Below, piece by piece: positions 57,809 through 62,768 of a stretch of 64,000 nt of DNA; within the stretch, counting starts at the first letter, position 1, and each line of letters opens with the position of its first letter. This stretch comes from a virus, in the IMG/VR virus record IMGVR_UViG_3300026136_000008; one strand, written 5' to 3'. The notes below the pieces were generated by a model. That model was given only the letters and a program-made list of their open reading frames with translations, was not told the DNA's origin and made no database searches. The position numbers and the translations under genes were made by a program.

Positions 57809-57835
57809 AATGGTTCCTTATGTTTGTATATTACT

Positions 57836-57859
57836 TATTTATAACGATTTGTATAAATA
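57836..57859. promoter_or_regulatory. Back-to-back divergent late promoters
   Basis: TATAAATA at 57836-57843 (-) and 57852-57859 (+). Confidence 0.8.
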
Positions 57860-57864
57860 GTTGT

Positions 57865-58362
57865 ATGAAAAAAACATATTCTGGATCATGGAAGCCAAAA
57901 AACCTTCATAAGTATAAAGGTGACCCAAACAAAATAACGTATAGATCATTGTGGGAACGCAATGCATTTCGACATTTAGATAATGCGTCATGGGTAAAGT
58001 GGTGGAATTCAGAAGAAACTGTAATAGGTTATATATGTAAAACAGATAATAAACCTCATAGATACTTTGTTGACCTTACTATAAGAACTACAAAGGGTGA
58101 GACCTGGTTAGTTGAAATTAAACCATCATCACAAACAAAACCGCCTAAACGTAAAAAGCTTAATGAAGCATTAACCTACATGAAGAATGTTTCTAAATGG
58201 GAATATGCAAATAAGTTTTGTGAAAACCGTGGGTATAAGTTTTATATTTGGACCGAGAAAGAATTAGAGGCAATGGGTATTAAGACAATGACCTTAGGGT
58301 TTAAAGCAAGCAAAACTAAAACTGGTAGAAGAATATGGAAAACACTTGGTAAAAAGGTATAA
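57865..58362 (+). CDS. gp4: Head completion protein (TnsA-like nuclease fold)
   Basis: YSGSWKPKNLHKYKGDP, YRSLWE, WNSEE, HRYFVD, LVEIKP, WTEKEL; start ATG 57865. Confidence 0.9.
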   Translation: MKKTYSGSWKPKNLHKYKGDPNKITYRSLWERNAFRHLDNASWVKWWNSEETVIGYICKTDNKPHRYFVDLTIRTTKGETWLVEIKPSSQTKPPKRKKLNEALTYMKNVSKWEYANKFCENRGYKFYIWTEKELEAMGIKTMTLGFKASKTKTGRRIWKTLGKKV

Positions 58363-58370: not shown

Positions 58371-58565
58371 ATGAAAGAAGAAGATCAAAGTGATGGTAAA
58401 CTAGAAATATCTCTAAGAATATTGGGGAACGAAATAATAGGATTTAAAATGATGGTAGATGATTTTAAAATAAAGTTTTTACTAGGTGGTATAGCAGCTA
58501 TGAGTATTATAGCATATATCATGGTAGTATTCGGACCGCAATTAATGGAGACTTTTAGTGGCTAG
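58371..58565 (+). CDS. Small single-pass membrane protein
   Basis: C-terminal hydrophobic helix FLLGGIAAMSIIAYIMVVF. Confidence 0.6.
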   Translation: MKEEDQSDGKLEISLRILGNEIIGFKMMVDDFKIKFLLGGIAAMSIIAYIMVVFGPQLMETFSG

Positions 58566-59136
58566 TTTGTTTGACAAGTTAGAATCAGAAGCATTCCGTA
58601 AAGGAATACAAGCAAGAACTAAAGAAGCTGAAGTATGGTTTGCTAAAAATGTAAAGAAGCTTGGTAAGTTAGGGCCAAATGTTTTGCAAGATGATAGGTT
58701 AAAGAAGACACGTATAAAAGCTGGTGATATGGTAATGTACACGTATGATCCAAAGCTTAAAAAGACTTTACCTTACTATGACACATTTCCTTTAGCTATT
58801 ATTGTAGGTAAAGCACCAGGTGGATTCCATGCGTTAAACTTGCATTACTTACCACCTAAAGTTCGTGCTATCTTCTTAGACAAATTAAATGATGTAACGA
58901 ATAATCAGAAGTTTGATGATTCAACTAAATTTAAAATAACATATAAGCTACTGCAATCTACGAAGAACTATAAGTATTTTGCACCGTGCTACAAACATTA
59001 TTTGACACCTAATGTAACATCTAATGTTATGAAGGTAAATGCTGCAGAATGGAATATAGCAATATTTTTACAAACGGCTGCGTTTAGGAAGAAGAGTCAA
59101 AGATATGTTTGGGGACAATCAAGGAGAATGTACTAA
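58558..59136 (+). CDS. gp2: DNA end protector protein
   Basis: YDPKLKKTLPYYDTFPL, LNLHYLPP, PCYKHYL. Confidence 0.9.
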   Translation: MASLFDKLESEAFRKGIQARTKEAEVWFAKNVKKLGKLGPNVLQDDRLKKTRIKAGDMVMYTYDPKLKKTLPYYDTFPLAIIVGKAPGGFHALNLHYLPPKVRAIFLDKLNDVTNNQKFDDSTKFKITYKLLQSTKNYKYFAPCYKHYLTPNVTSNVMKVNAAEWNIAIFLQTAAFRKKSQRYVWGQSRRMY

Positions 59137-59834
59137 TGGCATTACCAGTAAGTATCGATACAATGAAGTCTACAATTAACCGTAGAGGTGGTTTAGCGCG
59201 TGGAAATAGATACGCAGTTTATATAACCCATCCATCAAAATCTATAAACAGTTTATTAGGATATAACCCCGCAACTCTCTTGAGCAATTTAATTTCAGGT
59301 GATGGTGTAAATATAGCAGACTTTATTACTGATCCGAGAGATATGTTTTTATTATGTCAAACAGCAATGATGCCAGGTAAACGTATACTCACACAAGAAG
59401 CTATGCATAACCACCACATGTCTAAAAAACCTTATTCCGCTGCAACAGATGAAGTTACTATGTCATTCTTATTAACGAATGATTACTATATTAAAAAGTA
59501 TTTTGATATGTGGCAAGAAATGATTATTGATACATCAGGTAGACACTATAAGGCATTTTATAAACAAGACTATTGTACTGATGTACTCATACAACAACTG
59601 TCACCATCGAATGATGTGATTCCTGGATATACAGTTAAACTTACGAATGCATATCCAATTACGGTAAGTCAAGTTGATTTAACTGAAGGATCAGAAGGAA
59701 TGATGGAAGTAAGTGTTACGTTTGAATATGATAATTTTAAGGCATTAGATTTAAGAGATGGATTTGAAGATGTAGCAAATAAGATGTTACAGATAGGAGC
59801 GAATACGTTAGATATATTTAAGCGTGTATTTTAA
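59136..59834 (+). CDS. Tail-tube-like protein (gp54/gp19 family)
   Basis: GGLARGNRY, MPGK, FDMWQEMI, AYPITV, VSVTFEY; start ATG 59136 with AAGGAG. Confidence 0.75.
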   Translation: MALPVSIDTMKSTINRRGGLARGNRYAVYITHPSKSINSLLGYNPATLLSNLISGDGVNIADFITDPRDMFLLCQTAMMPGKRILTQEAMHNHHMSKKPYSAATDEVTMSFLLTNDYYIKKYFDMWQEMIIDTSGRHYKAFYKQDYCTDVLIQQLSPSNDVIPGYTVKLTNAYPITVSQVDLTEGSEGMMEVSVTFEYDNFKALDLRDGFEDVANKMLQIGANTLDIFKRVF

Positions 59835-59859: not shown

Positions 59860-60570
59860 ATGTTGCCAATTATAGCAACCCCAAAGTATGATATGATTGT
59901 ACCCTCAACAGGGCAAAGTATTACATACAGACCATATGTGGTCAAAGAAGAAAAGATTTTATTAATTGCATTAGAATCTGAAAATGAAGTAGCAATTGAA
60001 AGAGCTGTGACTGATATTATCAAGGCTTGTATAGAAACACCGGTTGATATGAAGTCATTCACGATGTTTGATATCGAATATATGTTTACTACTTTGCGTA
60101 GTAAATCTGTAGGTGAAGGTATTGAAGTTCAATTGAAGTGTTTAAATGATGAGTGCGAAGCGACACAAAAATTAAAAATTAATTTAGATGATGTTTATGT
60201 AGCTAATCTAGATACTGATGCAGATATGCATGTAAAAATAAATGACGAGATTAGTGTTGATTTAAAATATCTTGGTTATTCAGATAGTTTAACTCAGGCT
60301 CAAAGAGCTACTGAGACTGAAGCTGCTATTAATATGGTAGCAAAAACAATTGATACAATTTATAGTGGTGAAGAAACATATACAACTAAAGATGCACCGT
60401 TTAAAGAAGTAGTGAGGTTTGTTGAAAGTTTAAATAATGAGCAGTTTGCTAAGATCATAAACTTTATGACAGACTCACCGGTATTAACTTATGATGTTGA
60501 TTATAAGTGTAGTACATGTGGACATCATAATGTTAAACAGCTGAAAGGATTGACAGATTTTTTTTCGTAG
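59860..60570 (+). CDS. gp26: Baseplate hub assembly protein
   Basis: LPII.TPKY, YRPYVVKEEKILL, FDIEY.F..LRSKSVGE, two Cys pairs, GLTDFF. Confidence 0.85.
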   Translation: MLPIIATPKYDMIVPSTGQSITYRPYVVKEEKILLIALESENEVAIERAVTDIIKACIETPVDMKSFTMFDIEYMFTTLRSKSVGEGIEVQLKCLNDECEATQKLKINLDDVYVANLDTDADMHVKINDEISVDLKYLGYSDSLTQAQRATETEAAINMVAKTIDTIYSGEETYTTKDAPFKEVVRFVESLNNEQFAKIINFMTDSPVLTYDVDYKCSTCGHHNVKQLKGLTDFFS

Positions 60571-60758
60571 CCCTTTCACATGATAACGTAGCAAATCAGT
60601 TAAAAACTAATTTTGCTTTAATGGTCCATCATAATTTTAGTTTAGTAGATTTAGAAAATATGTTACCATGGGAAAGGGAATTATATTTAGTTCTCATGAA
60701 GGAACATATTGAAGAAGAGAACAGACGTAATAAGGAACGACAAGCAAAAATGGGATAA
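60558..60758 (+). CDS. gp51: Small gp51-like domain in the -1 frame of gp26, probably reached by frameshift (absent from the ORF track)
   Basis: FFFVALSHDNVANQLKTNFALMVHHNFSLVDLENMLPWERELYLVLMKEHIEEENRRNKERQAKMG*; first ATG is at 60621, inside the conserved-looking block and without an SD. Confidence 0.75.
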   Translation, partial: FFFVALSHDNVANQLKTNFALMVHHNFSLVDLENMLPWERELYLVLMKEHIEEENRRNKERQAKMG

Positions 60759-60764
60759 AAACTT

Positions 60765-62768
60765 ATGGCAAAGAAAACACAAGAAAGTTTATTAGGTGAA
60801 GTAGTACAACTTCTGCGAAAGCAGAATCAACTGAGTACGCGCGATAGACTGAAAGAAGCTGAAGAAGCTAAACGCCAAGAAAAAGCAGATGAGGCTATTT
60901 TAAATCCAAACTCTAAGACGTCAGCTACGGGCGAACCTATCATTAACGATGCACAAGACTTTAAGCGAAGATATAAAGCCAATATTGCTGGTAAAATTAC
61001 TAAAGAAAAAATGGACGCGCCTAAAAATAGGGCAAAGAAAAAAGTCCAAGAAGTAATTAAACACTCTACATTTATGACAAGACGTTTGATTGAGAAATCA
61101 AACAAGATGATGTACCGAATAAATGTTGAAAACACTAACGATGACCTCTTGAGGTTTAAATATAGAAAAGCAAGAGATCAGAAGAAAGACCAAAGTGATG
61201 AGGAATATCGTAGAGAGCATGGCGGTGAGATGTTTGACTTCACTAAGAAATTTAGAAAGATGATTGCTGGATTTTTATCTCCTAGGGAATTAGCACGACA
61301 AAAGAAAAGAGAAGAATGGTCAATCATTAAAGAAAACTGGTTTAAGTATGGCATGATCCCATTAATCACAGCATTAACAGCTTCGATTACTTTAGCATAT
61401 AACGGTATGCATTTATGGCATACAAAAGCTTTGGCTACTTTAGCTGCTGTTAAAACTTGGGGTACAACTACTATTGGAGCATGGTTAAAAGACGGAAAGA
61501 TTGCTACTGCATATACAAGCCTTAAAACTTCTATATACGCATGGTTTGGTTATGACAAAGCCGGTAAACCAATATATACGAAAGTTGATGGTGAATGGAA
61601 AAAGATTGGATGGGCTGGGCTTACTGAAAGTGTAAAGACTAGATTAGCTGACATAAGACTAAAAGCATATAATGCTATTGGATTAGGCCCTGATGGTAAA
61701 CCGCTTGGTGCTAGACCTGGACCTCGTGGATCATTACCTGTTAGAGCAGCATGGATGTCTGCTGGATATGCTGCTTTACTGACACGAAGATTAAATACAA
61801 TGTTTTCACCTGTTACTAAACTTAGTGGTGGTATAGCCAAATGGACTAGTAGTACAAGTGGTAAATTAATTAAAGATACTTTTAAAACCTTTGCCAATCT
61901 TGGTGCTGTGAAATTTATAGGTAGATTACTCTGGCCAATTGCTGCTATATTCTCAGTATTTGAAGGATTCAAAGCAGGTAAAGCTGAAGCTGCTGAAGAT
62001 GATGCTAAATGGTATACGATATTAGGTGAAGCCGGTGGTGGTGCAATAGGTTATCTTGTTGGTGGTTTGGCAGATGCTATTAAGGGATTAGCAGTATGGG
62101 GTATTAGAAAAATGTTTGGTCTTGAAACAGACGCAGATGGTAATATTTTACCTGGGCAAGGTATTGGCGGTGATGCTCTTGCAGCAATACAAAGATTCAG
62201 TTTCGCAGACTTAATACATAAAATTATTGCATTCCCTTTCCATGCAATTTCTGCTATATCAGATTATATAGGAGAGTTGTTAAGTGATCCTTTAGGTACA
62301 GCTGGAGACATGTGGAGCTGGGTTACAGATTTACCGGGTAAATTTGTTAATTGGATAAAAGACCTTATACCAGATTGGGAATTTCAATTTCCAAAACTAT
62401 TAGGTGGCGGAACATGGAATTTACGTAAAGCTCTTGGAATTGATGATGAAGGGGCTGAATCAATGACAAGTAACTATATTGCTCATTATGCAAGTAATAC
62501 TGATCCAGCAACTGGTAAAAAAATGGGCGTTGCAGACCTGCAAGCCATGAAGACTAAATACGGCGAAGATTGGAGATTTGGCGAAAGTGCTTCAGAACTA
62601 TTTCGAATAGCTAATGAGAGACAAGTAGCACTGAGAATAGCTGAAATACAAAATCAGGATGGTTATACTGCACGAGGTGCGGCTGTTAATGTTACTAATA
62701 TAATTCAATATAAAGATGAAGGTTATGGTGACTATATTAAGTCTACACGACTAGAAGCCACAATGTAA
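60765..62768 (+). CDS. Probable tape-measure / hub protein (gp29-like)
   Basis: 667 aa, helical, Gly/Ala/Trp-rich amphipathic segments; follows gp26/gp51. Confidence 0.55.
   Translation: MAKKTQESLLGEVVQLLRKQNQLSTRDRLKEAEEAKRQEKADEAILNPNSKTSATGEPIINDAQDFKRRYKANIAGKITKEKMDAPKNRAKKKVQEVIKHSTFMTRRLIEKSNKMMYRINVENTNDDLLRFKYRKARDQKKDQSDEEYRREHGGEMFDFTKKFRKMIAGFLSPRELARQKKREEWSIIKENWFKYGMIPLITALTASITLAYNGMHLWHTKALATLAAVKTWGTTTIGAWLKDGKIATAYTSLKTSIYAWFGYDKAGKPIYTKVDGEWKKIGWAGLTESVKTRLADIRLKAYNAIGLGPDGKPLGARPGPRGSLPVRAAWMSAGYAALLTRRLNTMFSPVTKLSGGIAKWTSSTSGKLIKDTFKTFANLGAVKFIGRLLWPIAAIFSVFEGFKAGKAEAAEDDAKWYTILGEAGGGAIGYLVGGLADAIKGLAVWGIRKMFGLETDADGNILPGQGIGGDALAAIQRFSFADLIHKIIAFPFHAISAISDYIGELLSDPLGTAGDMWSWVTDLPGKFVNWIKDLIPDWEFQFPKLLGGGTWNLRKALGIDDEGAESMTSNYIAHYASNTDPATGKKMGVADLQAMKTKYGEDWRFGESASELFRIANERQVALRIAEIQNQDGYTARGAAVNVTNIIQYKDEGYGDYIKSTRLEATM

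Follow-up and report, generated by a model that had tools for sequence, protein, structure and literature searches.

A probable −1 frameshift joining gp26-type and gp51-type sequences in the tail genes of a marine T4-like phage

The gp26-type gene and its overlapping −1 frame

The DNA analyzed here is a stretch of 64,000 nucleotides from IMG/VR virus record IMGVR_UViG_3300026136_000008, which we refer to as the window and which belongs to an uncultured marine T4-like phage. On its + strand lies a gp26-type gene (59860–60570) with a zero-frame product, the short form, of 236 amino acids. This product matches the Pfam family PF12322 (T4_baseplate) at an E value of 1.4e-54, with 185.6 bits against a curated cut-off of 24.5 over residues 8–235, and it matches phrog_150 at 2.5e-59. 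The gene ends with GAT TTT TTT TCG TAG, which includes a run of eight T at 60558–60565. Within this run is the slippery heptamer T_TTT_TTT (60558–60564, + strand), of the form X_XXY_YYZ and in phase with the gp26 frame; the zero-frame stop TAG (60568–60570, + strand) stands one codon past it. From 60537 the −1 frame stays open until a stop at 60756–60758. Its translation from the T run onward is FFFVALSHDNVANQLKTNFALMVHHNFSLVDLENMLPWER..., and the part from 60564 to 60758 on the + strand, 64 codons and a stop, is a gp51-type block that matches phrog_634, “baseplate hub assembly catalyst” (gp51), at 2.4e-22. The post-slip reading at the junction is ...GLTDFF|FVALSHDNVANQLKTNFALMVHHNFSLVDLENMLPWER..., and the joined product, the long form, would comprise gp26 residues 1–235 plus 64 more, or 299 amino acids. 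A first-pass annotation of this DNA had described the gp26 end with its in-phase heptamer and the open −1 frame encoding a gp51-like block, and both are confirmed on the sequence and its translation. The same annotation placed the start of the block before its first ATG, and this is correct as well: the earliest ATG, GTG, or TTG in the −1 frame is an ATG at 60621, 19 codons into the conserved block, and no GGAG-like sequence is seen 5' of it in the window.

Judging from the sequence, we consider it probable, at about 0.8, that one gp26-type gene gives rise to both the 236-residue short form and the 299-residue long form through a −1 slip on the T run.

Conservation of the slip site and frame

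We surveyed 76 loci: the window, 66 usable IMG/VR loci gathered with the window gp26 (31–91% identity), six GenBank phages from four groups (cyanophages ACG-2014f, S-WAM1, and S-SSM4, Pelagibacter phage Mosig, Vibrio phage ValKK3, and Sinorhizobium phage phiM7), and three further loci from relatives of metagenome proteins. The gp51 block stands in the −1 frame in every one of them, at gp26 identities of 24–91%, and all 76 carry a heptamer T_TTT_TT[T/C/A] in the identical place and phase, as T_TTT_TTT in 65 loci, T_TTT_TTC in nine, and T_TTT_TTA in two. The zero-frame stop follows the heptamer within 0–2 codons in 75 of the 76 and after eight codons in Pelagibacter phage Mosig. The first Phe codon is TTT in all 76, never TTC, and the base 5' of it is always T, the codon there being GAT, AGT, TCT, or AAT. 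The first-pass annotation had looked to alignment of gp26 3' ends for a shared T run and −1 phase, and it had named a variable relative frame, free use of TTC for Phe, and independent initiation of gp51 as signs against a shift; the alignment shows the run and the phase conserved throughout, with neither a variable frame nor a TTC as the first Phe codon.

The evidence on independent initiation points the same way. In about half of the loci the heptamer is immediately preceded by a −1-frame stop (TGA, from xxT GAT), so that the extension there is unreachable from upstream. Among the relatives the first ATG is found 11–101 nucleotides 3' of the heptamer and in most loci inside the conserved block, so independent initiation would cut away conserved residues. 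By tblastn, the extension is present in 553 GenBank phage records, and nearly all of 60 sampled matches start at query residue 1 or 2, which is the slip site.

GenBank and RefSeq present these sequences as two genes, with gp26 followed by a separate “baseplate hub assembly catalyst” of about 45–60 amino acids and no joined coding sequence. Under such an arrangement gp51 would have its own start or would be made by termination and reinitiation. A profile of the extension found 1826 cluster representatives, and the gene-caller products that contain the extension are mostly stand-alone proteins of 44–99 amino acids, as this arrangement predicts. In ACG-2014f an ATG lies 14 nucleotides past the heptamer, and right past the heptamer of ValKK3 the gp26 stop shares bases with an ATG (TAATG), an overlap that could permit reinitiation and that counts against a shift. 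On the other side, a separate start at 60621 would remove 19 conserved residues and would have no ribosome-binding site; the position of the first ATG drifts among relatives while the homology always begins at the heptamer; and the annotators of S-WAM1 and S-SSM4 had no callable gp51 at all. Two separate genes would also leave unexplained the invariant phase of T_TTT_TTY, the invariant −1 frame, and the in-frame fusion present in T4 gp51 (see below). We therefore regard separate initiation as very unlikely to be the general explanation. In ValKK3 (locus L005, 2490–2510) Met takes the place of the conserved Ala in the [IV]-A-L motif, and the ATG of this Met is the one in TAATG; KVP40-type phages might restart at TAATG in addition to, or instead of, slipping.

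Runs of seven T are scarcer in the window than expected, with 24 found (runs of ≥7 T or A, both strands) compared to 36 ± 7.6 in dinucleotide-preserving shuffles. Searched by megablast, the region matched nothing among GenBank phages. In two DNA assemblies, both from samples that are not flagged as possibly the source of this DNA, the T run is spanned with no indel. Homopolymer runs are error-prone, and a sequencing or assembly error, or decay of a once-fused gene into a pseudogene, could in principle produce a break of this kind. The same break recurs, however, in all 76 loci, from isolates and from many unrelated metagenomes, the contigs from other samples show no indel, and both reading frames are conserved, so that we give an artefact or pseudogene practically no weight. 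The slip-site pattern is more than chance and, as read from these alignments, is a real, strongly conserved recoding signal.

A few metagenome-predicted proteins (P0101, P0017, P0060, and P0008) have a gp26 body and the extension in one frame, as an artefact would also predict. They may be true in-frame long forms or may result from homopolymer indel errors. The junction of P0101 has no T run (…SEWFVICLAHD…), and the nearest IMG/VR relatives of P0101 and P0060 again carry the frameshift. When homologous proteins of greater length were searched for, no in-frame long form with words in common with the extension turned up, which is weak evidence.

The extension, the T4 paralogues, and the chaperone fold

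The −1-frame extension is related to both of the T4 families concerned. In addition to phrog_634, it matches the last 46 positions (235–280 of 282) of phrog_150, the gp26 family, and in a profile comparison by hhalign it aligns with residues 206–245 of T4 gp51 at an E value of 4.4e-5, which upholds the gp51 assignment of the first-pass annotation. T4 gp51 itself matches phrog_634 at 1.2e-23. With 249 amino acids, T4 gp51 is not a small protein: it consists of a complete PF12322 domain (residues 1–201, 3.9e-52) followed in frame by a homologous extension of about 48 residues. T4 gp26 (208 amino acids) is the PF12322 domain alone. Nor are T4 genes 26 and 51 adjacent pieces of one frame; they are divergently transcribed paralogues. 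T4-type phages therefore encode the long and short forms as paralogues, and the earlier suggestion that the two T4 genes fix the short and long products is strongly supported in this form. In domain make-up the short form of the window corresponds to gp26 and the long form to gp51; the difference is that T4 has two divergent genes without a slip site, where the window has one gene and an apparent recoding signal.

The two-gene phages serve as a control for the heptamer. It is missing from the gp26 genes of all five that we compared (T4, RB16, RB49, 44RR, and Octan). At the slip position T4 gp26 has GAG TTC TTT GAG, Octan has GAA TTT GTT, RB16 has GCG TTT TTA, and 44RR lacks Phe altogether; in these phages the FF motif has given way to FL, FV, or IL. 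The T run is thus dropped where no shift is needed, and it follows that the protein does not force the T run. We found the long-form gene in 1380 records, among them Tequatrovirus relatives and phages of the Acinetobacter, Aeromonas, RB49, and RB16 types. In a tree of the PF12322 domain (unrooted, with long branches), three clades are seen: the gp51 paralogues, the gp26 paralogues, and the single-gene frameshifters, including ValKK3. In RB16 (locus L083, 1610–4187), gp54, gp51 (long form), gp26 (short form), and gp25 stand in tandem on one strand, an order intermediate between the single-gene phages and the divergent pair of T4.

The AlphaFold2 model of the window gp26 has a predicted local distance difference test (pLDDT) score of 85.6. 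A second model was made for P0101, a natural in-frame metagenome long form that is 25% identical, with a pLDDT of 86. Exhaustive structural scans with the two models gave the same leading matches, on the N-terminal ~85–90 residues of each: 3fgx (Z 8.4), 2ob9, which is the tail assembly chaperone of HK97 (Z 7.1 and 7.0), and YqbN, 3klu (Z 7.4 and 6.0), with the next unrelated match at Z 4.6. These matches cover 70–85 residues of target chains of 96–119, at sequence identities of 6–12%. Foldseek gave a probability of 0.72 for 2ob9 and 3fgx and less than 0.1 for all else; it returned no match in the PDB at an E value of ≤0.001, and the gp26 profile, searched against PDB sequences, had no meaningful match. 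Of the three entries only 2OB9 is titled as a chaperone; 3KLU (YqbN) and 3FGX presumably have chaperone-related roles. Residues ~90–236 of gp26 have no counterpart in the HK97 chaperone-type structures. The extension is modeled as three to four helices, and a search with the extension alone gave generic helical-bundle matches only (Z 4–5.4), none of them specific. The moderate Z scores support, and do not prove, that the N-terminal part of gp26 has the fold of a tail assembly chaperone.

For T4, gp26 and gp51 are listed among the hub assembly chaperones and are absent from the particle (Leiman et al. 2010, PMC3004832). In the record of Acinetobacter phage Octan (locus L085, MT409116.1, 1789–5386), the depositors give the label “tape measure protein assembly chaperone” to gp26, gp51, and gp28 alike. 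A role for gp26 and gp51 as tape-measure chaperones is thus already in expert GenBank annotation, and the frameshift is not; the first-pass annotation knew of no description for this group, and this appears to apply to the frameshift but not to the role.

The neighboring genes complete the comparison with known tail chaperone systems. Directly upstream of gp26 is a tail-tube-like gene (59109–59834, + strand), of the type of the gp54 baseplate-tail tube initiator, with matches to phrog_45 “tail tube” at 1.2e-29 and to Pfam PF23849 (Phage_TTP_2) at 1e-6; in ValKK3, Mosig, and phiM7 the gene at this place carries the label “tail tube monomer” or “baseplate-tail tube initiator.” Downstream, an open reading frame of 667 amino acids (60765–62768, + strand) is probably the tape-measure protein, an analogue of gp29. 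The order on the + strand is thus tube-like gene, gp26, extension, and 667-residue frame, a tube-to-tape-measure placement. The order given in the first-pass annotation stands; its tape-measure label rests on position, on size, and on one Atlas lead, to PF25671 T4_Tape_measure (rank 21, score 0.91). The 667-residue product has Gly/Ala-rich hydrophobic segments and a size that fits a tape measure. It has no Pfam, PHROG, or NCBIfam match (E ≤ 0.1–1) and shows no similarity to T4 gp29 by BLASTP (E 0.55). A large frame also adjoins the extension in ACG-2014f, S-WAM1, and ValKK3, and one or two small open reading frames intervene in Mosig and phiM7. Further upstream in the window is a gp2-type DNA end protector gene (58558–59136, + strand; phrog_429). 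At the position of the gp4 head-completion gene, 57820–58362, is an open reading frame with a TnsA-like endonuclease N-terminal domain (PF08722, 4.5e-15). The + strand also has T4-type late promoter motifs, TATAAATA, at 57852 and 58358, and they precede the late operon.

A −1 frameshift of the lambda gpG/gpGT type is conserved in the tail assembly chaperone genes of long-tailed phages “except T4” (Atkins et al. 2016, PMC5009743, where the lambda work of Levin, Hendrix and Casjens 1993 and of Xu, Hendrix and Duda 2004 is summarized). The window gene resembles gpG/gpGT in lying between a tube-type gene and a probable tape-measure gene, in the apparent chaperone fold of its N-terminal part, and in having an in-phase X_XXY_YYZ near its 3' end with an overlapping open −1 frame, conserved in diverged relatives. 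It differs in its protein family (PF12322, ~235 amino acids, with an extra Cys4 domain), in the length of the extension (only ~64 amino acids), and in the heptamer, which is T_TTT_TTY rather than G_GGA_AAG. The analogy is supported by position, by the recoding signal, and by the predicted fold. In the lambda G/GT class the two proteins are produced in a fixed ratio and neither occurs in virions; the G part binds the tape measure, and the extension binds the tube or hub. Comparable partners for the two forms of the window would follow from the analogy. The myovirus P2 also has a −1 frameshift on a T run in a tail chaperone gene, giving gpE and gpE+E'. The window shares with it the contractile tail, the T-rich slippery run, and a short and long chaperone pair upstream of the tape measure; the protein sequences of the two are not known to be related. 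P2 is mentioned in the same 2016 recoding review (PMC5009743).

Candidate RNA elements and the proposed mechanism

Two RNA elements that might stimulate slipping flank the heptamer. We scanned 53 non-identical loci for unusual choices among synonymous codons and found that the anomalies cluster just past the zero-frame stop and at one distant site. In the first cluster an Ala codon is GCC in 35 of 36 loci (background 7%) and a Leu codon is CTT or CTC in 50 of 51 (background 25%); at the distant site an Arg codon is AGG in 49 of 52 (background 9%). The background preference at these codons is for GCT or GCA, TTA, and AGA. The two sites form the arms of a candidate helix. The 5' arm (CCCTTTC, A, CATG; 60571–60582, + strand) starts 6 nucleotides past the heptamer, and the 3' arm (CATG, G, GAAAGGG; 60667–60678, + strand) lies within the codons for P-W-E-R. 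RNAalifold, run on 29 sequences of the wider clade of the window, predicted the core of the helix with 9 of 11 pairs, and the helix is present in the single-sequence minimum-free-energy structure of 28 of 34 loci. The cells of the helix are paired in 88.5%, compared to 86.0 ± 0.5 in shuffles (0 of 500 reach the observed value) and to 37–67% when the partner is slid. One pair covaries, as UA in 19 sequences, UG in seven, and CG in five. A gap of 6 nucleotides between heptamer and helix is the usual spacing for a −1 stimulator.

The second element is a Shine-Dalgarno-like stretch, AAAGGA (60544–60549, + strand), 8 nucleotides 5' of the heptamer, which could be a weak stimulator. Its Gly codon (60547–60549, −11) is GGA in 34 of 53 loci, compared to 23% of background Gly codons (G = 47); because GG is fixed by the conserved Gly, the third base alone is informative. 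This GGA enrichment is the sole basis for the element, and a stimulatory role is doubtful for hosts with weak Shine-Dalgarno signals. A further Leu codon, at 60693–60695 (+135), is CTT or CTC in 38 of 46 loci, a conserved CTY bias for which we have no explanation.

In Escherichia coli dnaX, a −1 shift at A_AAA_AAG, with a Shine-Dalgarno-like element upstream and a hairpin downstream, separates gamma from tau, and the shifted product is the shorter one. The window resembles dnaX in its tandem-slippage heptamer with a zero-frame stop shortly after it, and it may have comparable stimulators in AAAGGA and in the helix at 6 nucleotides. It differs in that the shift would give the longer product and in that the putative stimulators include a 3' arm about 90 nucleotides away.

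The eight consecutive T of the window could also be a site of transcriptional slippage, in which RNA polymerase adds an extra U; one inserted U would lead to the same frame as a −1 ribosomal shift, and the long form would then be real and made mainly in this way. Most relatives, however, hold only six or seven T (T_TTT_TTC, or T_TTT_TTT followed by A, C, or G), and such runs are short for efficient polymerase slippage. The T_TTT_TTA of loci L075 and L079 is a classic ribosomal heptamer, and a conserved helix at a spacing of 6 nucleotides suits a ribosomal stimulator. Polymerase slippage as the main source of the long form is accordingly unlikely.

Under ribosomal frameshifting, the majority of ribosomes would read GAT TTT TTT TCG and stop at TAG (60568–60570), releasing the short form. 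A minority, with two tRNA-Phe on T_TTT_TTT, would slip back one base and continue in the −1 frame to 60758, to give the long form with its 64-residue helical extension homologous to the C terminus of T4 gp51. If the parallel with lambda gpG/gpGT holds, the N-terminal chaperone-fold part shared by the two forms would bind the tape-measure protein encoded just downstream, and through its extension the long form, the rarer of the two, would make a second contact in hub and tube initiation. In the clade of the window the slip would probably be aided by pairing of CCCUUUC-A-CAUG with CAUG-G-GAAAGGG about 90 nucleotides downstream. T4, RB16, RB49, 44RR, and Octan would obtain short and long forms from the separate paralogues 26 and 51, without a slip site. 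The sequence data and models show the anatomy of the site, its conservation, the homologies, and the similarity of fold; the actual shift of the ribosome, its rate, the partner of the extension, and the role of the helix are what we infer.

Several points, in addition to the TAATG of ValKK3, weigh against this interpretation. RNA contigs from two RNA runs cover 59875–60049 and 60202–60397 and stop short of the slip site. The identity of the 667-residue frame as the tape measure is only probable, and Z scores of 7–8.4 are within the range for which the tool warns that a match may reflect a common arrangement. Folded as a whole, the region in the window has no unusual stability (z = −1.16). RNAalifold predicted no structure on all 34 diverse sequences, and the helix emerged only without the five most distant loci; it is not found in the cyanophage, KVP40-type, or phiM7 loci. 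Both arms are within conserved peptide motifs (ALSHD and PWER), with a single clearly covarying pair. Because the helix is missing from three groups and its arms encode conserved motifs, we consider it a likely but unproven stimulator in the clade of the window. Finally, conservation of the heptamer could be partly at the protein level, because the heptamer encodes a Phe-Phe pair that is kept within the single-gene group; the T 5' of the two Phe codons and the two-gene control argue against that cause.

More tentatively, and with the odds somewhat against it, the single frameshifting gene could be ancestral in the whole T4 superfamily, with genes 26 and 51 as a frozen frameshift and with the shift of the pelagiphage-like clade tuned by a long-range helix that closes about 100 nucleotides. 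If so, the T4 pair would be a natural case of gene duplication replacing recoding, and the helix of the pelagiphage-like clade would close the entire ~100-nucleotide extension-coding domain, unlike a compact hairpin or pseudoknot.

Full-text literature searches (subscription-only papers being outside their reach) and GenBank records yielded no publication or database record of a gp26/gp51 slip. The frameshift appears to be undescribed, and it belongs to the known class of tail chaperone frameshifts. What is new for the clade of the window is the codon-level evidence for a long-range helix, together with the control that two-gene phages provide for the loss of the heptamer. The small “gp51” open reading frames of >500 public phage genomes, annotated or missed, are probably mis-called, among them those of cyanomyoviruses, pelagimyophages, and KVP40-type and phiM12-type phages. 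If the interpretation is true, it removes the stated “except T4” exception to the rule that one gene makes a short and a long tail chaperone (Atkins et al. 2016). It would also provide a reading of two long-puzzling T4 morphogenesis proteins, of which gp26 would be G-like and gp51 GT-like, and the existence of phages with one gene and a slip beside phages with two genes would be a natural experiment on the importance of a fixed ratio of the two products.

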